Virus record (IMG/VR): IMGVR_UViG_3300045988_154997
Coordinates: 37,871-101,870 of that record
Origin: a virus
Lineage: Duplodnaviria; Heunggongvirae; Uroviricota; Caudoviricetes
Length of the DNA stretch: 64,000 nt
Reading direction: 5' to 3' (one strand)
Below, in pieces: positions 242 through 39,463 of the stretch. Made by a program: the position numbers and the translations under genes. Position 1 is the first letter of the stretch. Each line of letters opens with the position of its first letter. The notes beneath the pieces were generated by a model. The model was not told where the DNA came from. It saw only the letters and a list, made by a program, of their open reading frames with translations, and searched no databases.

Positions 242-628
242 ATGTCTGATAACAAGATTGAATTTATAGAAAGTCGCTACGCTGCTTTTATCGCAGGGTT
301 GATTGAATCCTCACCTATGAGCCAGGCCCAGATAGCCAAAACAATTGGGTATAAAAACGCCAACAACCTTTCTTTAATTAAAAGCGGCAAAATTCCTTTG
401 CCTATCGATAAGGTTCGTCCGCTGGCGCTGGCACTGGGTATTGAGCCAAGTCGTCTTATGATGATGGTGCTGGAAGAACGCCAACCCGAACTCGCAGCAT
501 TTTTATACAAAGAAGGCACTGCTCCTCTTAACGAGGACGAAAAACAGGTTCTTGCTGCATATAACGAGCGATTCGGTAAAGAGAAAGGCGCATCACAAAA
601 GGTTGTTGAGGCCATAAAGTCTCTATGA
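242..628 (+). CDS. XRE-family HTH regulator (putative)
   Basis: ORF track 236..628 starts at GTG; first ATG at 242. HTH-like stretch SQAQIAKTIGYKNANNLSLIKSG. Converges on and overlaps the recombinase stop by 6 nt. Confidence 0.5.
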   Translation: MSDNKIEFIESRYAAFIAGLIESSPMSQAQIAKTIGYKNANNLSLIKSGKIPLPIDKVRPLALALGIEPSRLMMMVLEERQPELAAFLYKEGTAPLNEDEKQVLAAYNERFGKEKGASQKVVEAIKSL

Positions 629-1726
629 AAAATTTACACGAATAAGCTCTGTTGATAGACGATCTCCCTTAAATTTGTGGTCAATTTCGTCTAAATCCGG
701 TTGCTCTACGATTGATGCGATGTACGTCGAGAAACTTTCTAAGGCGTCTCGCATCTCGTCCATATAATCGTGCCGGTCGTAGACCCGATCTATCCCCTCA
801 AGACTGTGGTTCATGATTTTACGTGATACCTCCTGGCTTATGCCTAATGCTGGGAAGTAACTACGCGCAGTACGGCGCAAATCTCGGGGTGTAAATGGCT
901 CAAGCTCCATCAGTTCTGGTCGTTCCAGAATACGACGTAATGCCTGGGCTATTGCCACTTTAGACATAGGAAGGTCTTTCCCGATTTTTTTATTCGAAGG
1001 CACGAGCCACTGGCTGTCTTTACCATATTCGAACAACTCTTCAATACATGTGCGCATTAATGAGCTTAAAGGCAGAGAATGCTCACGGGCAGATTTGTTC
1101 CTCTTGCCTTGATTCCAAACCCCACGCTTAAGATTGAACTCACTTTTTTTAGCCCGCAGTACTTCGTCAGGTCGTCTTGCGGATACAAGACATAGCCTGG
1201 CCGCCCATTTTGTACCAGCACACACATTGAAGTAGTCCCATATATTCCAGAACACCCATACCTCTGCGTCGGTCAGCTTCCGCTCGCGAGGTGTGGGCTT
1301 TGCGCCACCGGCAACTTTGTTAAGTGACATATCGTTTAACGGTGACACGTCGATCATCCCCTGGAAGGCGCACCAGCTGAGGAACTGCTTCATCAGAGAG
1401 AAAACGCGGCGACCCATAACAATTTTGCCATCCAGTATTAGTGGGTTGACCAGTTGGTTCACCATGAACCTATTAATATCACTTACTTTTACATCGGCAA
1501 TGTGCGGCAAAACATGTATCAAAATACAATGAACAGCGATCTCTGGCCGACGTCTTGTTATCAGCAGAGATAAGCGAGTGAATAACATGAATGCGTCCGA
1601 GAATCTCATGTCATTGCTGACCTGGGAGATCATAACGGCCTGCATTTGAGATGCTCTTTCGAGATACTCAATCGCCTCTTTTGAGGTGTTCTCCGCAGCG
1701 CGTGCTCTGTCAAAGCTATTTTTCAT
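623..1726 (-). CDS. int: tyrosine recombinase / integrase
   Basis: C-terminal catalytic signature: ARRPDEV (Arg box), PRDLRRTARSY (box II-like), MNHSLEGIDRVYDRHDY (HxxxxxxxY with catalytic Tyr). Confidence 0.75.
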   Translation of the reverse strand: MKNSFDRARAAENTSKEAIEYLERASQMQAVMISQVSNDMRFSDAFMLFTRLSLLITRRRPEIAVHCILIHVLPHIADVKVSDINRFMVNQLVNPLILDGKIVMGRRVFSLMKQFLSWCAFQGMIDVSPLNDMSLNKVAGGAKPTPRERKLTDAEVWVFWNIWDYFNVCAGTKWAARLCLVSARRPDEVLRAKKSEFNLKRGVWNQGKRNKSAREHSLPLSSLMRTCIEELFEYGKDSQWLVPSNKKIGKDLPMSKVAIAQALRRILERPELMELEPFTPRDLRRTARSYFPALGISQEVSRKIMNHSLEGIDRVYDRHDYMDEMRDALESFSTYIASIVEQPDLDEIDHKFKGDRLSTELIRVNFS

Positions 1727-3587: not shown

Positions 3588-3651
3588 AAGAATAGCCGCC
3601 TGTCGTGTGATACTATTTACAGAACTAAACTGGCTTTCCACAAGGTGTAAA

Positions 3652-4473
3652 ATGACTATCCTTGAAAATCCTGATGCGAATGTTGAATCTGTTTATAGTC
3701 TTCATCCAACCACGTTGTTTCATTTTACAAAAAACGAAGATGCTTTCTATAGCATATTGGCTGAGAAATATTTTAAACCATTTCTTGCTCGCGAGGAAAT
3801 AAGAGGAGTCGGGGGACGCAGGAGGTTTGCAGTACCAATGGTATCGTTTTGTGACATAAAACTATCACAAATCAGAGATCATAGCGGAAAATATGGAGAA
3901 TTCGGTCTTGGGCTAACTAAGTCTTGGGCGGAAAAGAAAGGTCTACACCCAGTTCTATATATGAATAAGAGTAGTGAAATATTTTCTAAATACAATGCCA
4001 GAATTCGACTTATTAAAAATAAGTTGGTGCCGCTTTGGAAGGCTAGAGGAAATTTAGATACCAAAAACAGAATAGAGTTTGAGAAATTGAAAGCAGAATA
4101 TTCTGATCTATATAATTTACTGCGTTATATGAAAAATTACAGAGGCAAGCTAGAGCGAAAAGATAATAAAACAATAGAGAATTATATATATGCAGACGAG
4201 AAAGAGTGGCGTTATGTGCCAGCTCCTTTTATTGGTGATTTATGGCCTAGTCTGAGTTTGGAGCGTGTTATCACTTCTGATGACAAAGCAAAAATTAGCT
4301 CAAAATTTTCAAAGTTTGGCATTGATTTTGAGTTCAATGATATAAAATATATACTTATACCTAAAGAACAACATATCCAAAAGCTAATTAACTTTCTCTC
4401 AGGTTTAGATGGATTTGAATCTTCAATTATTAGCAAAATTCTGACCATGGATAAAGTAAAGCAAGATTTTTAA
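3652..4473 (+). CDS. hypothetical Abi-like protein (N-terminal LFHFT motif)
   Basis: ORF 3607..4473; first ATG in frame at 3652 (MTILENP). N-terminal LFHFTKNEDAFYSIL recalls the HFT start of AbiGi-type proteins (from memory, unverified). AT-rich. Confidence 0.45.
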   Translation: MTILENPDANVESVYSLHPTTLFHFTKNEDAFYSILAEKYFKPFLAREEIRGVGGRRRFAVPMVSFCDIKLSQIRDHSGKYGEFGLGLTKSWAEKKGLHPVLYMNKSSEIFSKYNARIRLIKNKLVPLWKARGNLDTKNRIEFEKLKAEYSDLYNLLRYMKNYRGKLERKDNKTIENYIYADEKEWRYVPAPFIGDLWPSLSLERVITSDDKAKISSKFSKFGIDFEFNDIKYILIPKEQHIQKLINFLSGLDGFESSIISKILTMDKVKQDF

Positions 4474-4499: not shown

Positions 4500-5711
4500 G
4501 TGTCAATATTTTTAAGCGAAAAGGAAATGCAAAATTGGATAATTGACAAATTATCTGATCAAGATGGATTATATAATTCAATCATCAATATTGATAAATT
4601 AAATGAATTTAATCCGAAAAGACCCGAAGAGAAAAAAATTAAGGAGAGTTATCAGTTTTGTTTAAAGAACATAACATTGTTACATTTAATGACAGATGAT
4701 GAGAATATCTCAGCAACAAAATCTGAGATATTAAGACCTGATGTCGTTGCTTATTCAACAGAGAATGAATCCTTAGTTCTTATTGAGTTAAAAAATTTTT
4801 CAACACCAACAAGGGAAGCTGGAACTGAGCTAGTGGCATATGCTGCGGAACTAAAAAGTTACTTGTCATACTTGTCTGATGGAGATATTACCAATGTACT
4901 TATATCACCTGACTGGCCACCTTTGGTTAGACACTTTATTTTTAATATGATCGTGTGGCAGAAGAAAAACTTTCTATGTTTAGAACCTTGCTATGATTTA
5001 CAAGGTAACGTATCACTTACTCCTTTAGATATTAATAAATTAGTTATTGCGGAAGAAGCACTCAAGTTCTCATTTCGTCATCTTGGCGGGTTTCATATAT
5101 GTTTGTATGATGATGAAATGTATAATCAACCGACTTCCACTTCTCGTTTACATTCGAAATTGAATGTTATTAAAGCCAGCATGGCAAAAATGTCCTCAGA
5201 CGGTGAAAAGACTAATAGCCATGGGTTTGCTATTTTATGTAGAAATTTGAACGAGAGAACTTTAGCACCATATACGATTACTCTAGTTAATGTTTCTGCG
5301 TTTTCTTCCATAGAGCGATACTTTCATTCGCCACAAATATCCAATGCTTCTCAACTCCCTAGAATAGGACAAAAAATTTATGACATTTACACTCATTACC
5401 AACCATCAGGTTTTGGGGCATCAATGTCGAAAATTTACAATTCTGGGAGGGCATATTTAGAAAAAATTAATTGCAAGCCGCGGATCGAGGTTATAGACAC
5501 CTGGGATGTATTGCAAGTACATACACATGCGCCTTATATGGAAATGGTTCATATTGAAACGTGGGGAGTTTTTAAAGAAAAATTGATTGAAGGTCTAAAT
5601 GAATGTTATGAGGATGAATATTACACACCTGATTTTAACGATGTAGATTTTTGCATGGTGTGTATTGAATCCTTAATTGACCAGAATTATGAATTTATAA
5701 AACTTTTTTGA
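4500..5711 (+). CDS. PD-(D/E)xK nuclease-like protein (putative)
   Basis: 403 aa. Motif ILRPDVVAYSTENESLVLIELK fits the PD...(D/E)xK nuclease core. GTG start at 4500 with GGGAG 9 nt upstream; 26 nt after the previous gene. AT-rich. Confidence 0.5.
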   Translation: MSIFLSEKEMQNWIIDKLSDQDGLYNSIINIDKLNEFNPKRPEEKKIKESYQFCLKNITLLHLMTDDENISATKSEILRPDVVAYSTENESLVLIELKNFSTPTREAGTELVAYAAELKSYLSYLSDGDITNVLISPDWPPLVRHFIFNMIVWQKKNFLCLEPCYDLQGNVSLTPLDINKLVIAEEALKFSFRHLGGFHICLYDDEMYNQPTSTSRLHSKLNVIKASMAKMSSDGEKTNSHGFAILCRNLNERTLAPYTITLVNVSAFSSIERYFHSPQISNASQLPRIGQKIYDIYTHYQPSGFGASMSKIYNSGRAYLEKINCKPRIEVIDTWDVLQVHTHAPYMEMVHIETWGVFKEKLIEGLNECYEDEYYTPDFNDVDFCMVCIESLIDQNYEFIKLF

Positions 5712-5713
5712 AG

Positions 5714-5736
5714 AAAAGGGGCCGAAGCCCCTTTGA
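5714..5736. terminator. rho-independent terminator hairpin (AAAAGGGGC-CGAA-GCCCCTTTT), bidirectional
   Basis: GC stem with 4-nt loop and flanking A/T runs. Ends the plus-strand cargo operon and the minus-strand tRNA transcript. Confidence 0.6.
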
Positions 5737-5805
5737 ATATTGCGCTGAAAAAAAGTGTTGCTAGGATGTTAGCAAGCTATGGTTAAGAACGTCTGCCGTA
5801 ATTGT

Positions 5806-5895
5806 CAATCACAGCGTTGAGCGGTCTGGTTTATGTTAGCGGAGTCTTAATCGAGTTGATTAAAAGGCCAAACCGCTCAACGCTGTGTCTGGCGG
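5806..5895. repeat. long inverted repeat (15-bp arms ACAGCGTTGAGCGGT / ACCGCTCAACGCTGT, ~56-nt spacer)
   Basis: Read directly. Arms resemble those of a second IR at 6712-6833. Lies next to the 3' end of tRNA-Ser. Confidence 0.5.
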
Positions 5896-5899
5896 AGAG

Positions 5900-5986
5900 T
5901 AATGGAATCGAACCATCATCGTTTGCACAATGGGACGATTTTCAAGACCGCTTGAGCACCATGCTCCCTACTCTCCGGCCGTTGTG
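5900..5986 (-). tRNA. tRNA-Ser (anticodon UGA, type II) - tentative isotype
   Basis: 87 nt; reverse complement starts GGAGAGT, ends GGTTCGATTCCATTACTCTCCGCCA. Anticodon loop CTTGAAA. Long variable arm. Anticodon stem has two G-U pairs. Confidence 0.6.
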
Positions 5987-6200
5987 GTGGCCGGTACTGA
6001 ATCTCCGGCATACGGTGCAGCCAATTAGGACTACGGACGATCACCGCTCGCGAAAGGGAAGATTTGCGGCCGCATTTCCCTAACATCCAAGAAAGCTATC
6101 GCATCAGTCTGCGAATCCACCACAACGGTAAGATCACTACCTTTCGACCAGTCATTGTGCACATGAACGACGATTAACCGTAATGATCTTATCGTTGTAT

Positions 6201-6276
6201 TGGTGCCGGTTAACGGACTCGAACCGCTGACATCCTGCTTACAAGGCAGGCGCTCTACCAACTGAGCTAAACCGGC
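6201..6276 (-). tRNA. tRNA-Thr (anticodon UGU)
   Basis: 76 nt GCCGGTTTAGCTCAGTTGGTAGAGCGCCTGCCTTGTAAGCAGG...GGTTCGAGTCCGTTAACCGGCACCA; perfect acceptor and anticodon stems; CCA encoded. Confidence 0.8.
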
Positions 6277-6280
6277 AATT

Positions 6281-6367
6281 TGGTGGGGAGTGATGGAGTC
6301 GAACCACCCGAGTCGCAATGACAGTAGATTTACAGTCTGTCCCGCTACCTCTACGGACTAACTCCCC
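6281..6367 (-). tRNA. tRNA-Tyr (anticodon GUA, type II), atypical anticodon stem
   Basis: 87 nt GGGGAGT...ACAGA-CTGTAAA-TCTAC...GGTTCGACTCCATCACTCCCCACCA; resembles E. coli tRNA-Tyr but the two outer anticodon-stem pairs are C-A / A-C. Confidence 0.65.
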
Positions 6368-6372
6368 TAAAT

Positions 6373-6447
6373 TGGCGATGGTGGGTGGATTCGAACCACC
6401 GACCAGTTGGTTAACAGCCAACTGCTCTACCGCTGAGCTACACCATC
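6373..6447 (-). tRNA. tRNA-Asn (anticodon GUU)
   Basis: 75 nt GATGGTGTAGCTCAGCGGTAGAGCAGTTGGCTGTTAACCAACTGGTCGGTGGTTCGAATCCACCCACCATCGCCA; canonical cloverleaf. Confidence 0.8.
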
Positions 6448-6637
6448 AATTCAGCACTGCCAGTATTTATTACTCAACAGTGCCAATCGCGGCGGTGTTA
6501 GTTTCTGCCAGGAAACACACCGCTACTGGCACTTTCCGTTAGTGCCAGACGTTTTCGACTTCGCTCAATAGAAGGCAAAATCTTTAAGTAGATGATGTTT
6601 CTGAGGACAGCACCTACTTTGTAATTTATACAATGTG

Positions 6638-6654
6638 ATGTATGGAATCATTTG
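6638..6654. promoter_or_regulatory. 17-mer GATGTATGGAATCATTT (copy 1 of 2)
   Basis: Identical 17-mer at 7650-7666; shares its 13-mer with the operator palindrome at 1825-1857. Confidence 0.4.
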
Positions 6655-6711
6655 TTGTGAAAACAGGCACTAATGGCAACAGTGGTTAAACCTATACAAC
6701 AATCCTGTCTT

Positions 6712-6833
6712 CACAACGTTGAGGCCACTACTCCGATTGAATGTTTGCCCAACATGTTACATATCAACGCTCGCCGGTATCTCTGTGAATAGAACCTTAG
6801 AATTGATAAAAATGTAATGGCCTCAACGTTGTG
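6712..6833. repeat. long inverted repeat (15-bp arms CACAACGTTGAGGCC / GGCCTCAACGTTGTG, ~92-nt spacer)
   Basis: Read directly; arm sequence is related to the 5806-5895 IR. Confidence 0.5.
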
Positions 6834-6909
6834 TGCTGGCTAACCATACCAGCCGGGCTACGTCGCCGCTTTTTAACCCAGTATAAACGACATAATTGAA
6901 CAAAATGAC

Positions 6910-6989
6910 GTAACAGGATGGGCGGTCATTGGCTAAGAATCCGGGAGTCGTATATGAGTTGAAAATATACTGACCGCCCATTCTGTTAC
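6910..6989. repeat. inverted repeat (19-bp arms GTAACAGGATGGGCGGTCA / TGACCGCCCATTCTGTTAC, 1 mismatch)
   Basis: Read directly. A further 8-bp-stem hairpin (GAGGGAAC-TCTCAT-GTTCCCTC) follows at 6997-7018. Confidence 0.5.
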
Positions 6990-7193
6990 TTCATCGGAGG
7001 GAACTCTCATGTTCCCTCCTGCGTTCTGCAATCACACTCGCTCAGTGTGTCCCATTTCGGTAACGAGGCTGGAAACTGACCTCGCTGGTGTTTGGCTTAT
7101 TAGGCTACTGCCAGATAGACTTCTTCGTTTGCACTTGTATTTAAGTTCAAACAGTCGCGTCTCAACGAAAACAAAGTCATCTTATACATAAAA

Positions 7194-7219
7194 GATAGGT
7201 AAGTAAATACTTATTATTG
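7194..7219. promoter_or_regulatory. dispersed motif copy (GATAGGTAAGTA + TAAGTA-aa-TACTTA)
   Basis: Contains the reverse complement of TACTTACCTATC and a TAAGTA..TACTTA palindrome; just downstream of the gene ending at 7225. Confidence 0.35.
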
Positions 7220-7224
7220 TATTT

Positions 7225-7515
7225 TTATTCGGTTGTGACTTTTTTGATCAAGGCCACTCTACGACTAGGTGTTCTTGTGATGGTGGCAGTGAATTGTTTC
7301 GCTTGGATAGTAATGGTTTCGTTCTCCTTAAGTTGCCCGTAGCGAGTTTCCACCAGGGTGCCAAGACGCCACAGACCATCATCGATACGTTTATGACTAG
7401 CAAATTTAATCAGCAACAGTTTTACGACTAACTGACCTACGTAAAAGGCGAATGCGACTCCGGCCGCTAAGAAATAGGTGACCAACCACCATTCCCAAGA
7501 AGTTAACTTGCTCAT
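7225..7515 (-). CDS. small membrane protein (hypothetical)
   Basis: 96 aa with hydrophobic segment WEWWLVTYFLAAGVAFAFYVG; start overlaps the upstream stop as ATGA. Confidence 0.5.
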   Translation of the reverse strand: MSKLTSWEWWLVTYFLAAGVAFAFYVGQLVVKLLLIKFASHKRIDDGLWRLGTLVETRYGQLKENETITIQAKQFTATITRTPSRRVALIKKVTTE

Positions 7516-7664
7516 TTTTTCACCTTTGTTTCATGAACTACTCGATACACGCGCTTTCCGATGCACAGTGTTTTGGTTTTAAGTTCCTGCTTAATCAAAT
7601 CATGACAGATGCCGAAGCCGATAAGGAAGCCAGCCATAAAAGCCAATGAGATGTATGGAATCAT
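7512..7664 (-). CDS. small hydrophobic protein (50 aa; below the ORF-track size cutoff)
   Basis: Hand-translated MIPYISLAFMAGFLIGFGICHDLIKQELKTKTLCIGKRVYRVVHETKVKK; ATGA overlaps at both ends. Its start lies inside the 17-mer motif. Confidence 0.35.
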   Translation of the reverse strand: MIPYISLAFMAGFLIGFGICHDLIKQELKTKTLCIGKRVYRVVHETKVKK

Positions 7665-7876
7665 TTAAAGGCTCCTGATTCTACTAATTGCTGTAGCAAT
7701 AATTTCCCTTTATCAGTTAACTGGTAGTTGGCCGAGCGCCACGTTTCAGAAACGTTTGCAACCAACCCTAAACGCTCTAACTTAGCTCGCGTTTTAGGCT
7801 TCCAGTACTCAGGGAACTCCGGCCACTTACTTATTTCATGAAGCGTTTCTTTCTCCCGTTTACTTAATACGATCAT
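7661..7876 (-). CDS. hypothetical protein
   Basis: 71 aa ORF; start overlaps the ligase stop (7873-7876), translationally coupled. Confidence 0.45.
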   Translation of the reverse strand: MIVLSKREKETLHEISKWPEFPEYWKPKTRAKLERLGLVANVSETWRSANYQLTDKGKLLLQQLVESGAFK

Positions 7877-9195
7877 TCTTTATCTCCGATTCGATCTTCG
7901 GTATCGCGTAAGCAACGCGGCCATTTCAGTCGTGGGTGGCGTAAGCTGCCATCAGGTGTTTTCTCGTGACAATGAACCTCGACAATACGACCACGGTACT
8001 TCTCTTTGTTGTTCCAGATCTCGTCCAGATATTTATGCTTAATGCCGCTCGCACGAACGATGACGCCGTTTTCAAGACGAATAACAATTTTCCCAAGCGT
8101 GTTGGCAAAACCAGAGTCCGGGTCGCCCGGCTCAAAATCGATAATTTCACCATCTTCTGAATCTTCGTCTTTTAACTTCCACCAGCTGCGGGTACGTTTA
8201 AACTCGTAAACAGAGTTCGGATCTTTGCCCATCTCCCCTTCTTCGTTATCGTCCAGGCGTTTCATGAAGCGTTCGATGAAGTCTTCGTGGCTATGGATGA
8301 TGTAGAACGGATGCAGGTGAATGTCTTGTGCGTAGCCTTCACTGCGATCGTTTTTGAACAACGCCACGAGCATAGCCAGGCGCTCTTTCAGCTTCATACC
8401 TGTCTTTGCATACTCTTTGGATTTAGCCTGTGCTCGCCATTCCGGTAGGAAGAAGTCGAAAACATGATAAATAGCGCCAATTGCCTGCACGTTCTTTTTG
8501 CGCAATGCAGATACGGACTGGTTAAATGAACCGGCTGTGCCTTCACCATCGAAGAAGATGTGTTTGTGGCCTGAAAGTTTGCCTAATTCGAGCATGGCTG
8601 GCTTTAGGTGATCGAGAGACGTGATTGGATTACCAGTACGAGAAAGGAAGTTAACCTCTTCTTCGTCAACAATAACCTCGCAAATTACTCGCAAACCATC
8701 GAGCTTAAGGCTGCCAATCATCGGCCATTTTGCTTTAGGGTTTGGCTTGAAGGGGTATTTGTCGCCTTTTTCTTTATACGGTGACGCCAGCTGCACCTCG
8801 AATTTCGGAATGGGATTTTCAAAAACCTTGTTGCATAGGCTAATCCCAACGCCAGCTTTCGGATCTTTTAAGAGGAAACGACGGAAGACGTCCTGCCCAT
8901 CGGCGCACATTGACGCCACGATAGACTCAACAGCAGCTATTGCTGCGTTCCCCGTCAGCTCGCGAGAGGCCAGCTTATTCAGTACATCAATGGCTTTTTC
9001 GTCACTTGGGACGGACTCACTAAGCGGCTCTGCCACTTTGTATTTCTTTACCCCAAAACGGATGAAAGGGTTGAGCATCAATGAAACCATGCTTTGTTCA
9101 AAGTCATCCATGTTGGCCAATGCCTCTTTTTTTGCATTGGTTCCCATAGCTTTCATTTCGTCCAGCTTATGCTTAAGTGCGATCAACTTTTTCAT
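7873..9195 (-). CDS. ATP-dependent DNA ligase
   Basis: Adenylation motif I KLDGLR (SLKLDGLRVICEV); C-terminal GSLRHPRLKWPRCLRDTEDRIGDKE typical of ATP-dependent ligase OB-domain ends. Confidence 0.8.
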   Translation of the reverse strand: MKKLIALKHKLDEMKAMGTNAKKEALANMDDFEQSMVSLMLNPFIRFGVKKYKVAEPLSESVPSDEKAIDVLNKLASRELTGNAAIAAVESIVASMCADGQDVFRRFLLKDPKAGVGISLCNKVFENPIPKFEVQLASPYKEKGDKYPFKPNPKAKWPMIGSLKLDGLRVICEVIVDEEEVNFLSRTGNPITSLDHLKPAMLELGKLSGHKHIFFDGEGTAGSFNQSVSALRKKNVQAIGAIYHVFDFFLPEWRAQAKSKEYAKTGMKLKERLAMLVALFKNDRSEGYAQDIHLHPFYIIHSHEDFIERFMKRLDDNEEGEMGKDPNSVYEFKRTRSWWKLKDEDSEDGEIIDFEPGDPDSGFANTLGKIVIRLENGVIVRASGIKHKYLDEIWNNKEKYRGRIVEVHCHEKTPDGSLRHPRLKWPRCLRDTEDRIGDKE

Positions 9196-37800: not shown

Positions 37801-39463
37801 CGGTCGCCATCGTGGCAAAGGTGCTAACCATCTGGCTCCCAGCGCCAACTACCCCCATGATCCCTGCTCGCATCAGTTTGAACGCAACCATCGCGGCCAC
37901 GACCTTACCGAGATTAATTACCAGCTCTTGGTTCTTTGCTAACCATTGAGCAAGCTGACGCAACCCATCGATTGCCGTTGTTAACCCCGAACCTAAAGAA
38001 TTGGCAAACGAAATCCCTTCGGCGCTATTCATGATTGAAGCCAGTTCTTTCATCCCCTTCGATAGAGAATCCAGATATCCGGCCTGACCAACCCGATCAG
38101 CAAATAACGTGAATGACGTCTGAAGTTGCGCCAGCGCACCTGTGTAGGTTTGCATCATGTCTTTCGCTGCGTTCTCATTCTCCGCACGCAGACCAACAAA
38201 CATCAGAGACAACGCCTGTTTTGCCTCAACCGTACCGCTGGCAACGGCTTTAGTCAGTTCCCCCATAGTGATGCCTGCGGCGTCTGCCATTGCCTGCATC
38301 GCGTTAGGAACGGCTTCACCTAATTGCTGACGTAGCTCTTCCATTGACACAACGCCCTTACCGGACATCTGCTGAACGGCCACAGCCGCACGTTTCAACA
38401 GCTCACTATCACCACCAAAACGAGCAACGGAGTCCACCAGCGCCTTCAGAGAACCATCGGTTGGATCTAAGCCAGCAGAACGAAACTTCACGAAGGAGTC
38501 TGTTAACGCCTGCATCGCGAACGGCGCATTTTGAGCCATGTCTACGATGTACCTCATATCATCAGCGGCAGCCTGGCCCGGGTTGGACTTCTCCTTATTC
38601 AACCCTCGAAGCATCACCCGCATACGTTCCATTTCGGCCGCAGCTTCAACAATAGGCTTCTGCCACCCAAACATGATGTCAGTAACCGTTCTGGCTGCAT
38701 CTCCGATCTCGCCAAGCAGGAAAATGTTGCCACGAAGGCCAGAGAACATACCTCCTTCGTTACTTTTACCGCTATGGCCAGAAGCGCCGCTACGCCGCCC
38801 GCTACCACCATCGCCACTTCCAGATGTACGAACGCGTACCGGCTTGCTAATCAGTTGCTGACGTCCGATAACTTCGTCCATCTGCTCACGAACCTTTTTC
38901 AGTCCCTCGGCAGCCTGACTCGTTGTGACACCCCAATTACTGAGTCGCTTCGTCGTGGTATTAAGGCGCGTATTCATGCCACTCACGGACGCAGAGGCTT
39001 CTTTGACCTCCGTACCAAAGCGGCTTGCGCTTTTGCTTGCATAGGTCGCCCAATCAGAGAAATCATTTAGCTCTGATTGCACTTTACGTAATGACGCGGT
39101 GAGTTTATCTACTGAAGAAGTTGTCGTATCGACGCGCTCAATCAGGGCTTTAAGACCAGAATTGAGGCTGGTGATGTTGCCACGCATTTTACGCGTAGCA
39201 TCTGAAGCAAGCTCAAAACCGGCAGCTACATCCTGTAGTTTATCTGCCGTAGAATCGAGCTTGCTTTCCAGAACGCCAATGATACGGGCGACCGAACCCA
39301 AAGAGCGTTCAAAGGTTTGGATTTTTTGAGCAGGCTTTGTTACCTGCTCACCAAATCGAGTAAGCAGTTTCCCCGCACGATCGATTGACGCTGTAAACTG
39401 TTTGTCTTCCAGCGACAGGATAAACTCTACGTTTTGTGACATTCCCTTGTCATCCTCTGCCAA
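34889..39463 (-). CDS. H: tail tape measure protein
   Basis: 1524 aa, long helical/coiled-coil central region, hydrophobic Gly-rich segment; position between G-T and M. Confidence 0.85.
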   Translation of the reverse strand: MAEDDKGMSQNVEFILSLEDKQFTASIDRAGKLLTRFGEQVTKPAQKIQTFERSLGSVARIIGVLESKLDSTADKLQDVAAGFELASDATRKMRGNITSLNSGLKALIERVDTTTSSVDKLTASLRKVQSELNDFSDWATYASKSASRFGTEVKEASASVSGMNTRLNTTTKRLSNWGVTTSQAAEGLKKVREQMDEVIGRQQLISKPVRVRTSGSGDGGSGRRSGASGHSGKSNEGGMFSGLRGNIFLLGEIGDAARTVTDIMFGWQKPIVEAAAEMERMRVMLRGLNKEKSNPGQAAADDMRYIVDMAQNAPFAMQALTDSFVKFRSAGLDPTDGSLKALVDSVARFGGDSELLKRAAVAVQQMSGKGVVSMEELRQQLGEAVPNAMQAMADAAGITMGELTKAVASGTVEAKQALSLMFVGLRAENENAAKDMMQTYTGALAQLQTSFTLFADRVGQAGYLDSLSKGMKELASIMNSAEGISFANSLGSGLTTAIDGLRQLAQWLAKNQELVINLGKVVAAMVAFKLMRAGIMGVVGAGSQMVSTFATMATAIQTPFNLGATAVTRFNRAARMGLAPIPSLIFAIRGAITGLKGAFAGLTAFIAANPIGAAFTVATVAVAGLITYMTMLRSETSKVVDEIRKIPEAMTAAKRAQMADRAEKLEKQILADQRALKNGEGVNYVSNSAGVITHKESKADIEARLKKNQEEYQKITGTIALGDGAVAKRLAKEAAESQIEKIRAENQIFAATFVKARQEALDKIQKINDDGSLSDDEKNKLLAPLRETVNKSYLEPAQKLVDSLSSRKNATEKQIATLNDQLEKAKKDGNTEQIQKLQGSIRGYQEHLEAVAQELTQAEFERDNAAKTGKGVMSNQGTVLGLGTTDKAAQKALAQYMRNQMDSATYQRTLPDGTPMMDFEGKPIIGPKQLKTQLNLQKASSASSLEKMSDEERAAAIAALTKAREQDAAAAEKAAQRSANASQRAAKKEQAAQQKLAAGYQKALDKADQLMGQMGESSKATVSFDQSLRDTTKSLTDLANAVPNEFITQEMIDKAKKRLEDLKNATPEYREMFNRRNVEQMISTWAPEADSIISAGYTPSREDKVADFEGTYNRNLKALIELRDKASDPKVVALYTKKINQLIAAGNTALIKETGTATQKLALEYENLAEQIENTWTDLFSGLTDALTDFVINGKMSFSSLSQSILKDITNMVVKSQITLPLMNMLGMGTTAAGSSQSGNLLTGVASAVANQGVRMGNTVNGDKSVGEATKETSSSVTGLGQTTQQTTSAIGTATNAIGSWVSGLFDSTEAKDAETKAVKDSIFSMQNLSSVTGALSAAFAMLGANASGSGNKWLSFGATVASGLVSAWAGGGFDSVTSSSAKTATSSVADGTKGIPAIPKFANGGIFGKDGVIPLRAYQKGGIANSPQLALFGEGSMNEAYVPLPDGRTIPVTLSTDGMSGGGNVLSPVSIEINVHSDGSTTESGDTESIWNNAAQRMKAIALETIAQEKRPGGSLNPNTQRN

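Follow-up and report, generated by a model that had tools for sequence, protein, structure and literature searches.

According to a 2026 preprint, STnc100 and PasD are prophage-encoded small RNAs (sRNAs) that have a common structure and different seeds and that probably derive from a common ancestor; PasD is bound by Hfq and is found near Q and the lysis genes (bioRxiv 10.64898/2026.05.13.724894). The STnc100 RNA has been detected experimentally, and its role is unclear (PMC12370729). Here, we analyze a stretch of 64,000 nucleotides (nt) of a Caudoviricetes virus (IMG/VR record IMGVR_UViG_3300045988_154997, positions 37,871 to 101,870), hereafter the window, which belongs to an SSU5-like phage-plasmid of Escherichia coli. 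Between two of its tRNA genes, and on their strand, lies a multi-branch RNA element of about 150 nt that we call A (5979-6128, minus strand) and that was delimited by its fold, the covariation in its family, and a covariance model. A is very probably a selected RNA structure of the tRNA strand and, judging from the comparison of sequences, probably shares ancestry with STnc100 and PasD. Along with its partner hairpins, this widespread and unannotated covarying scaffold is the main interest of the region, rather than the odd tRNA-Tyr that an earlier reading made from the letters alone (the sequence-only reading) had pointed out.

That reading had described four minus-strand tRNAs (Ser, Thr, Tyr, and Asn) among unusually long inverted repeats, and a gap at 5987-6200 in which no tRNA could be folded. 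The association of tRNAs with long hairpins is real and not due to chance. Over the 64 kb, ARAGORN calls exactly four tRNAs, the four named, all on the minus strand: tRNA-Ser(UGA) at 5890-5976, tRNA-Thr(UGU) at 6201-6276, tRNA-Tyr(GUA) at 6281-6367, and tRNA-Asn(GUU) at 6373-6447. Neither ARAGORN nor Rfam finds a tRNA or a tRNA remnant in 5977-6200. Read on the tRNA strand (6203-5979), the gap folds as two units, a long hairpin that we call B (6117-6203) and then A, and is thus not mostly unstructured; the one hairpin that had been noticed there (5985-6004) is part of A, the hairpin P3 described next.

A is closed by a perfect helix of 12 base pairs (bp), P1, which pairs 6117-6128 with 5979-5990 (CCGUUGUGGUGG/CCACCACAACGG). 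The hairpin P2 (6099-6114) comes next, followed by a centre that varies across the family (approximately 6010-6098) and by the hairpin P3 (5990-6009), which abuts P1; all are on the minus strand. The element finishes 2 nt ahead of the 5' end of tRNA-Ser. Our covariance model of A (R1) scores this copy at 73.2 bits, on the minus strand only, and the motif occurs once in the window. With 97.5% identity, the block formed by A and tRNA-Ser recurs in P7 and D6, two P1-like phages; A is 75% identical in Klebsiella Jedunavirus phages, which have no tRNA at that place. An internal helix that reads GGGAA/UUCCC in the window has become AGCGA/UCGCU in the Klebsiella phage copy, a compensatory change.

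The family of A is large. A pattern drawn from the conserved 5' part of the element matched at least 120 IMG/VR contigs, and a blastn search with a common variant retrieved 145 GenBank phage records, none of which has A annotated. The carriers include P1, mEp460, Stx2 phages, HK620, the N4-like IME11, the T1-like HC6, Klebsiella jumbo phages, and phages of Erwinia, Pantoea, Edwardsiella, and Stenotrophomonas. Among genomes (one per species), we found the element in many Enterobacterales, including Kosakonia, Citrobacter, Klebsiella, Rahnella, Pantoea, and Yersinia, and the full architecture also in Aeromonas, Marinobacterium, Pseudomonas, Moraxellaceae assemblies, Janthinobacterium, and Rugamonas. 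Pattern matches in genome contigs were checked for P2, P3, and the closing helix, and 79 of 120 were discarded as chance. A protein-based search for related loci in genome contigs returned none, and the loci were obtained from the viral collection. A literature search with the conserved sequence strings of A found no paper.

The layout of the family comprises P1 (GUUGUGGUG/CACCACAAC), a linker AAU, P2 (GCGCAGGCUGAUGCGC), a centre of 10 to approximately 150 nt without conservation, and P3 (GCCGGAGAUCAGCACCGGC) abutting P1. This scaffold is near-invariant from Escherichia to Janthinobacterium. Among 44 distinct sequences, 97.6% of the cells are paired, a value inflated by the pairing filter (G.U allowed) with which the set was picked, and 9 of the 23 pairs have changed on both sides (36 cells), a count that the filter does not inflate. 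None of 500 shuffles of these sequences matched the observed values on any of five measures, and controls in which the partner was slid gave 27-53% pairing. When both kinds of mismatch are treated alike by a strand-symmetric extraction, the tRNA strand shows 66 G.U versus 19 A.C, an excess that points to folding of the tRNA-sense strand. All tRNAs within 1.5 kb of A elements are on the strand of A, and the nearest flanking genes are co-oriented with it. The element frequently ends immediately ahead of the 5' end of a tRNA, and many sites have no tRNA nearby.

How A compares with STnc100 can be seen when its fold is laid against the consensus and structure line of the Rfam family (RF02076). Both have one and the same architecture, in which the closing helix has UGGUG/CACCA as its core, AAU links it to a 5' hairpin, and a variable centre leads to a 3' CCGG..CCGG hairpin that stacks on the closing helix. 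Like STnc100 and PasD, A is borne by phages and prophages, where it occupies untranslated stretches close to Q, to the lysis genes, or to tRNA clusters. Intermediates exist. The last module of P1, a variant that we call A3, reaches 33.9 of the 47 bits required for gathering in RF02076, with an alignment that spans the closing helix (UGGUG/CACCA), the linker (AAU), the 5' hairpin, and the 3' hairpin (CCGGG..CCCGG). In turn, R1 scores A3 variants at 24-31 bits. With filters off, R1 aligned end to end the STnc100 copy of E. coli O157 that lies downstream of stx2B (18.7 bits, the next best match having 4). The differences are also clear: the A of the window has its own P2 (UCGCAGACUGAUGCGA) and P3 (GCCGGAGAUUCAGUACCGGC) sequences, it lies between two tRNAs with B ahead of it, whereas STnc100 is a stand-alone unit that has a terminator of its own, and only for STnc100/PasD are Hfq binding and targets known. 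Considering the shared architecture and the intermediates, and yet the lack of a match of A itself to RF02076, we file the element as STnc100/PasD-like, outside the family as Rfam defines it.

STnc100-like sequences are themselves frequent: of 5,426 complete E. coli genomes, 2,900 have them, with up to 13 copies each, and RefSeq leaves them unannotated. In the Stx2a prophage of E. coli O157:H7 (fetched locus L335, 1999-2119), the copy lies about 100 nt past stx2B and is followed by a terminator; the anti-sRNA AsxR has been reported to map to this same region downstream of stx2B. In mEp460, the stretch beside the rha antirepressor gene (L212, 1-172) matches the Rfam families isrK (67 bits) and C4 antisense RNA (45.8 bits), which are known prophage RNAs unrelated to A.

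Two other sets of RNAs from tRNA regions are natural terms of comparison. The rnaC (species 1) and rnaD (species 2) of T4 are, like A, small structured RNAs next to phage tRNAs and on the same strand, and rnaC has a multi-branch fold in which its two ends pair to form the closing helix, beside which lies a 3' hairpin. However, rnaC differs by a real T-arm (GGUUCGAAUCC), which is absent from A. We know of no function for rnaC or rnaD. Homology with them was rejected, as R1 finds nothing in positions 68000-76000 of T4 at E <= 1; the blastn search of the spacer against the phage collection retrieved no T4-type record. The second set is that of the sRNAs made from spacers and trailers of E. coli tRNA operons, such as the 3'ETS of leuZ, which are short unstructured sponges. 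A would likewise be released in the course of tRNA processing, with ends set by RNase P and RNase E, but it is a large, conserved, and closed scaffold that is also found away from tRNAs. The suggestion that this tRNA region also encodes small stable RNAs, as some phage tRNA regions do, therefore holds in part: a conserved covarying element is present on the tRNA strand, its ends abut tRNA-Thr (at the CCA) and tRNA-Ser (at the 5' end), and it would presumably be stable, but the nearest described family is that of STnc100 and not of the T4 RNAs.

The hairpins that accompany A and the tRNAs are also out of the ordinary. Inverted repeats with arms of at least 18 nt within 150 nt occur four times in the 64 kb, and three of them are beside the tRNAs (5810-5829/5868-5887, 6712-6731/6814-6833, and 6905-6928/6971-6994), in agreement with what the sequence-only reading had seen; a further one, 6117-6140/6180-6203, has 83% complementarity. 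Two have related arms, as had been noticed (CACAGCGTTGAG vs CACAACGTTGAG), and the arms of three have common CACA(A/G)CG...CG(T/C)TGTG ends, with a loop sequence common to two. The folding of the region is far stronger than that of shuffled sequences (z = -6.6 for 5700-5895 and z = -7.1 for 6448-7220). Between plasmids, the stems stay paired by means of compensatory or sense-strand G.U changes.

All these hairpins are on the minus strand. The first, H1 (5806-5891), begins 2 nt past the CCA of tRNA-Ser and has a 20-bp core stem (5810-5829 with 5868-5887) and a 38-nt loop. Its sole stem mismatch reads U.G on the tRNA strand, and its relatives show the compensatory replacement of GAGCGG/CCGCTC by GAACGG/CCGTTC. 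Hairpin B (6117-6203) has arms at 6180-6203 and 6117-6140 and a 39-nt loop, and its 5' arm starts at the CCA of tRNA-Thr. B-type stems are about 20 bp long, start with CACAAC(G/A)G(G/U)UAAG... and finish with ...CUUACCGUUGUG, and show widespread compensation across contexts. Of 174 distinct contexts of A, 39% have such a hairpin upstream of the element, compared with 3-4% in controls. GUUGUGG is found both in the 3' arm of B and in the 5' strand of P1, and its hexamer GUUGUG is therefore a pairing partner for which B, with its 5' arm, competes with the 3' end of A. H3 (6712-6833) has a 20-bp stem and an 82-nt loop; its orthologues have loops of 57-90 nt and compensatory or wobble changes (GGCC/GGCC, GACC/GGTC, GGTC/GGCC). 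Its 3' arm overlaps the 5' strand of a small hairpin closed by GUUGUGAAGACAGG/CCUGUUUUCACAAC (6654-6717), and the two repeat the arrangement of B followed by A. H4 (6905-6994) has a stem of 24-26 bp with 2-3 mismatches and a loop of about 40 nt that partly resembles that of H1, and its counterparts are in the leaders of D6 and P1. H1 and H4 are diverged B-type hairpins. Finally, a short GC-rich hairpin, GGAGGGAAC...GUUCCCUCC (6997-7018), has no U-tract.

The long hairpins were rejected as intrinsic terminators for want of U-tracts, and a terminator scan lists none of H1, B, H3, H4, and 6997-7018, its sole site within 5806-7018 being the P2 of A (6114-6099). Rfam, searched over the region at gathering scores and at E <= 10, gives nothing for the hairpins or the gap, and its weak matches to small nucleolar RNAs and microRNAs were rejected as chance matches to long hairpins. 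Parallels are found in the long stems that flank the 16S and 23S rRNA and in the RNase III sites of the T7 early RNA, which are paralogous hairpins with common sequence. As in these systems, the 20-26-bp stems of the window would bracket or separate stable RNAs in one untranslated precursor, but the loops are long (38-82 nt) and variable, and the hairpins stand beside the tRNAs instead of enclosing them.

In approximately 120 contexts of the family, the genes that recur next to A are those of a CI-like repressor or Q on the upstream side, and those of a holin, an endolysin, a spanin, or YfdP/YfdQ-like proteins on the downstream side. In HK620, a B-A module lies between pR'/qut and the annotated late terminator, upstream of the holin gene; in mEp460 and one Stx2a phage, A separates cI from the first early-left gene. 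The order in P1 is the C1 operator Op72, a leader with a B-type hairpin, tRNA-Asn, tRNA-Thr, a B-A array, and tciA...ban, with four B-A modules in the approximately 900 nt between tRNA-Thr and tciA. We considered whether A could be the RNA partner of a neighbouring defence gene or DUF2303 (YfdQ-like) gene and rejected it: the neighbours have no PADLOC hit, and the yfdP-yfdQ region of the K-12 element CPS-53 lacks the A motif. Klebsiella phage BUCT_49532 (Jedunavirus; L004, 3214-3795) has a lone A, without tRNA or B; immediately upstream of it, and in the same orientation, a free-standing HNH endonuclease gene is inserted among tail genes, and the two may be mobile together. One P1 record has a hypothetical protein across part of the B-A array (L207, 2662-2835), hypothetical proteins are annotated over the elements in mEp460 (L212, 2208-2761), and RefSeq and GenBank leave the RNA elements unannotated. 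In the window, open reading frames at 5802-6083 (plus strand), 5916-6086, and 6031-6318 (both minus strand) overlie the B-A module and the tRNAs. Such small reading frames are probably spurious in the window, in P1, and in mEp460.

Many of these positions are untranslated leaders, i.e., after cI (where nutL and putL lie), between Q/pR' and the lysis genes, and ahead of tciA-ban in P1, and they raise the question of whether B and A are cis-acting leader elements that provide resistance to Rho and terminators, or insulation, in the manner of rrn boxA, lambda nut, and HK022 put, by recruiting NusB/NusE or RNA polymerase or by denying the loading of Rho. The extreme structure of the whole region would suit such a role, and the near-invariance of the scaffold across gamma- and beta-proteobacteria fits a conserved host machinery. 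Furthermore, just upstream of P1, in the 3' arm of B, 162 contexts give the consensus CAGUGCUCUUUCCGUU followed by GUGGUG, with the boxA-like CAGUGCUCUUUCC (for example at 1985-2003 of L208, HK620) and, in 30% of them, an exact GCUCUU at a fixed register. We take this consensus to resemble the E. coli rrn boxA (UGCUCUUUA/CACUGCUCUUUAACAA) followed by a GU-rich box. However, the copy of the window reads UGAUCUUAC, and its region 5700-7224 has neither GCTCTT nor a match to TGCTCTTTA with at most 2 mismatches; the sole such match in 5700-8000 is at 7407-7415, inside a gene of 96 amino acids (aa). A boxA in the form of a single-stranded octamer of the GCUCUUUA type was accordingly rejected for the leader and tRNA region of the window. 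Moreover, the boxA-like stretch sits in the paired 3' arm of B, and many members carry there an unrelated, compensated sequence.

The comparison with HK022 put and lambda nut is instructive in this respect, as they occupy a similar leader position just downstream of early and late promoters. The put RNA of HK022 forms two stem-loops in a V shape, without a closing helix (PMC9378689), and HK022 has no A motif at up to 3 mismatches; identity with put was rejected on account of both. Position also speaks against a cis-acting role: the A of the window is at the 3' end of the operon, where only tRNA-Ser and a terminator-like hairpin follow, and a constitutive antiterminator placed right before the late terminator of HK620 would be harmful. 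We regard it as unlikely that these are cis-acting elements of this kind, and continue to favour an RNA of its own, cut from the tRNA precursor.

The modules differ a lot between close relatives. The region 5700-7250 is 97.5% identical in Escherichia phage CMS-2020a and approximately 96% identical in phage Cyrano, both of which are SSU5-like phage-plasmids of about 108 kb, and identical copies of the spacer between tRNA-Thr and tRNA-Ser are found in approximately 100 complete E. coli plasmids, NZ_CP028430 and NZ_CP014490 among them. Among SSU5-like plasmids, this spacer has lengths of 8, 195-224, 294, 320-364, approximately 490, and 668 nt, and it is assembled from differing B and A variants, sometimes two of each. 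The spacer of Cyrano consists of ACACAATT only, which equals one copy of the junction motif, and the homology of the window with P7 and D6 stops exactly after CACAACG. The spacer variants, the single junction of Cyrano, and this break in homology show that the conserved helix ends are places of module exchange.

Since gain, loss, and swap of modules occur exactly at the CACAACG/CGTTGTG ends, the elements might act at the level of DNA, as mobile palindromes akin to miniature inverted-repeat transposable elements or to attC sites, or as recombination sites that shuffle tRNA cassettes, with RNA structure as a by-product. The ends (T)CACAAC and GTTGTG(T) resemble the attC cores RYYYAAC/GTTRRRY with one mismatch each, the sizes (60-150 nt) and variable centres are attC-like, a tyrosine recombinase gene lies 4 kb away, and a hairpin of single-stranded DNA could produce an equal G.T strand bias. 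However, the covarying P2 and P3 within the inverted-repeat ends are not needed by a simple transposon end, and the elements invariably point the same way as the transcription unit around them and its tRNAs. The recombinase has but a generic match to the phage-integrase family, the elements are also present in virulent N4-like, T1-like, and jumbo phages without an evident shared recombinase, and no target-site duplications were seen at the element ends. Identity with an integron attC site in particular was rejected, given the imperfect cores, the lack of an integron integrase, and the co-orientation with transcription. A purely DNA-level role seems to us quite improbable, and selection on an RNA remains the preferred explanation.

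The tRNAs themselves deserve some comments. The genes of tRNA-Asn (75.5 bits; anticodon gtt in ARAGORN), tRNA-Thr (74.9 bits; tgt), which encodes its CCA, and tRNA-Tyr (32.9 bits; gta) pass the gathering score of the Rfam tRNA family (RF00005, 29 bits), and ARAGORN agrees for all three. The gene of tRNA-Ser (tga) is not listed at this score, and its best Rfam match is tRNA-Sec-like, with 42.3 bits against a gathering score of 47. In tRNA-Ser, the variable arm is long and the D-loop short, A8 is present, and the acceptor helix may have 8-9 bp; this cloverleaf is non-standard, the tRNA-Sec model scores higher than the general one, and tRNAscan-SE left the amino acid of the homologue unassigned in the D6 record. 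In the fetched loci, its 57 homologues fall into 11 variants, and their acceptor, D, and variable arms show compensatory changes. As these changes preserve the arms, we accept it as a functional gene from the comparison of homologues.

The mismatches reported at the base of the anticodon stem of tRNA-Tyr are present in the Rfam alignment (A27.C43 and C28.A42), and the stem 27-31/39-43 thus lacks two of its five pairs. They result from a GU to AC dinucleotide substitution at 27-28, which breaks the top two pairs. The label of an atypical tRNA-Tyr nevertheless has to be restricted to one lineage: all 39 homologues in the fetched loci have the perfect stem GUAGA/UCUAC (G27-C43, U28-A42), and the sequence of the window is identical in 6 of the 272 E. 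coli plasmid records with the gene. Judging from these records, the mismatch is a genuine variant of a small lineage, which is found in isolates of several hosts, and is neither a sequencing error nor a trait of the family, and not a designed feature. The variant can form an alternative perfect 5-bp helix, GACAG/CUGUC, with a 12-nt loop. Concerning function, the host tRNAs targeted by the PARIS nuclease AriB have in common U36-A-A-U39 beside the 40|41 cleavage site (PMC12409363). The tRNA-Thr of the window (6201-6276) reads UAAG and its tRNA-Asn (6373-6447) UAAC, and they may therefore escape AriB-type nucleases and serve as nuclease-resistant replacements; the tRNA-Asn of P1 retains UAAU.

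Some relatives show rearranged or relic-like tRNAs. In an SSU5-like IMG/VR contig (L078, 4570-4644), a tRNA consists of the 5' two-thirds of tRNA-Asn and the 3' end of tRNA-Thr (…GGTTCGAATCCGTTAACCGGCACCA), joined in the T-arm, with tRNA-Tyr and tRNA-Thr deleted and the acceptor stem of the chimera mismatched, which looks like the outcome of recombination between T-loops. In P1 (L207, 2420-2500) and D6 (L002, 3491-3570), the loop of the hairpin after tRNA-Thr holds a perfect T-arm-like GAGGGTTCGAATCCCTAC, apparently a relic of a tRNA that the hairpin arms enclosed. One could thus see the hairpins and the gap as decayed tRNA genes and neutral spacer, their structure being what is left of former cloverleafs. 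The T-arm-like GAGGGTTCGAATCCCTAC, the chimera produced by deletion, and the hypervariable loops and centre of A would all be accounted for. Such decay is very improbable as a general explanation, as it leaves aside the covariation and near-invariance of the scaffold between distant genera, the stems kept paired by compensatory changes, the many A sites without a nearby tRNA, and the lack of any tRNA remnant in the gap.

We would give about an even chance to the overall picture in which the region is a stable-RNA operon of an SSU5-like phage-plasmid, where A is a divergent STnc100/PasD-like sRNA cut from the tRNA precursor. It builds on what we observed: anatomy, family size, covariation, strand, co-orientation, placement against the tRNA ends, contexts, arrays, and modular exchange. 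Transcription of the minus strand would start on the side of the replication genes and pass through the leader, as in the ban operon of P1, to produce one untranslated precursor with four tRNAs, the family of 20-26-bp hairpins, and one compact multi-branch RNA. The processing of the tRNAs would free the B-A segment, with RNase P cutting 2 nt past the 3' end of A and the trimming of the 3' end of tRNA-Thr on the other side. Stems of at least 20 bp are possible substrates of RNase III, and the long hairpins would be processing or stabilizing stalks on the RNA. The closed scaffold would shield A from exonucleases, and its variable centre would hold the specificity, e.g., a base-pairing seed, by analogy with STnc100/PasD. 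The GUUGUG/CACAAC ends would double as junctions for the gain, loss, and swap of modules between phages. The transcription, processing, stability, Hfq binding, and targets of A are all proposals. That A is an Hfq-dependent base-pairing RNA is possible, though we lean somewhat against it.

Several points weigh against this picture, in addition to the pairing filter mentioned above. RF02076 gave no match in 5400-7500 at E <= 10, let alone at its gathering score of 47, and the proposed homology of A with STnc100 derives from the shared architecture and from weak mutual matches of the models through intermediates. The stability and trans-action proposed for A are carried over from a distant relative that itself has no clear function (PMC12370729). 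The search pattern of the family fixed the loop sequence of P2, and a candidate loop-loop contact between CUGA and UCAG is not clearly kept in A3 variants. Conserved loops and a near-invariant closing helix could equally mean a cis-acting site for a host protein. In the window, no protein-coding gene lies downstream of A, a simple scan of the leader found no sigma-70-like promoter, and A may have been carried in with tRNA-Ser from a P1-like phage, given the nearly identical block of P7 and D6.

The rest of the neighbourhood fits the replicon. In annotated relatives, genes for a helicase, a primase, and a ligase and three small genes are followed on one strand by approximately 750 nt of non-coding DNA and then by the tRNAs, and the flanking ligase (7873-9195, minus strand; Pfam), primase, and helicase genes of the window match the arrangement of Cyrano and SSU5. 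The untranslated and densely structured leader (6448-7224, minus strand) extends from the gene of 96 aa (7225-7515) to tRNA-Asn; it is kept among SSU5-like phage-plasmids, with 79% identity in SSU5, and a sequence block near its 5' end recurs, by eye, in the ban leader of P1 and the late leader of HK620. At the other end, a predicted GC-rich hairpin, GGGGCCGAAGCCCC (5718-5731), followed by UUUUCUUC on the minus strand (5710-5734 overall), is probably the end of both the tRNA operon and the convergent plus-strand gene at 4500-5711; this call was made by eye and from the predicted fold, and the consensus terminator scan did not list the hairpin. Further on, the tyrosine recombinase mentioned above (623-1726, minus strand; Pfam) is separated from the tRNA operon by a gene for an AbiGi protein (3607-4473, plus strand; Pfam 4.8e-25, PADLOC 5.3e-47) and by the adjoining plus-strand gene at 4500-5711, which encodes a 403-aa protein of unassigned family. 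The two probably constitute a pair for abortive infection of the AbiG type. In Cyrano, glutaredoxin and other genes occupy the position of this pair, which is therefore a slot for variable cargo.

A broader reading is that B and A form a modular RNA-cassette system of proteobacterial phages: a near-invariant, tRNA-sized scaffold made of the closing helix and two hairpins, whose loops may touch, that displays a hypervariable insert, is swapped between unrelated phages through GUUGUG/CACAAC helices, is arrayed in P1, and is released by tRNA processing. In this reading, STnc100, PasD, and the family of A would be branches of one large phage-borne superfamily of scaffolded regulatory or decoy RNAs whose scaffold would be read by a conserved host factor. 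We regard it as tentative and rather unlikely as a whole. The covariance model R1 can now be used to annotate A elements, in stretches that databases leave blank or fill with small hypothetical reading frames. If our interpretation is correct, an unannotated class of conserved structured RNAs is present in such well-studied phages as P1, HK620, and the Stx2 phages and in hundreds of phage-plasmids of clinical E. coli, and there would be a concrete model of scaffold and variable insert for it. It would also explain the high variability of the tRNA regions of phage-plasmids, and it would extend the STnc100/PasD family past the lambdoid prophages of pathogenic E. coli to tRNA operons, virulent phages, and beta-proteobacteria.

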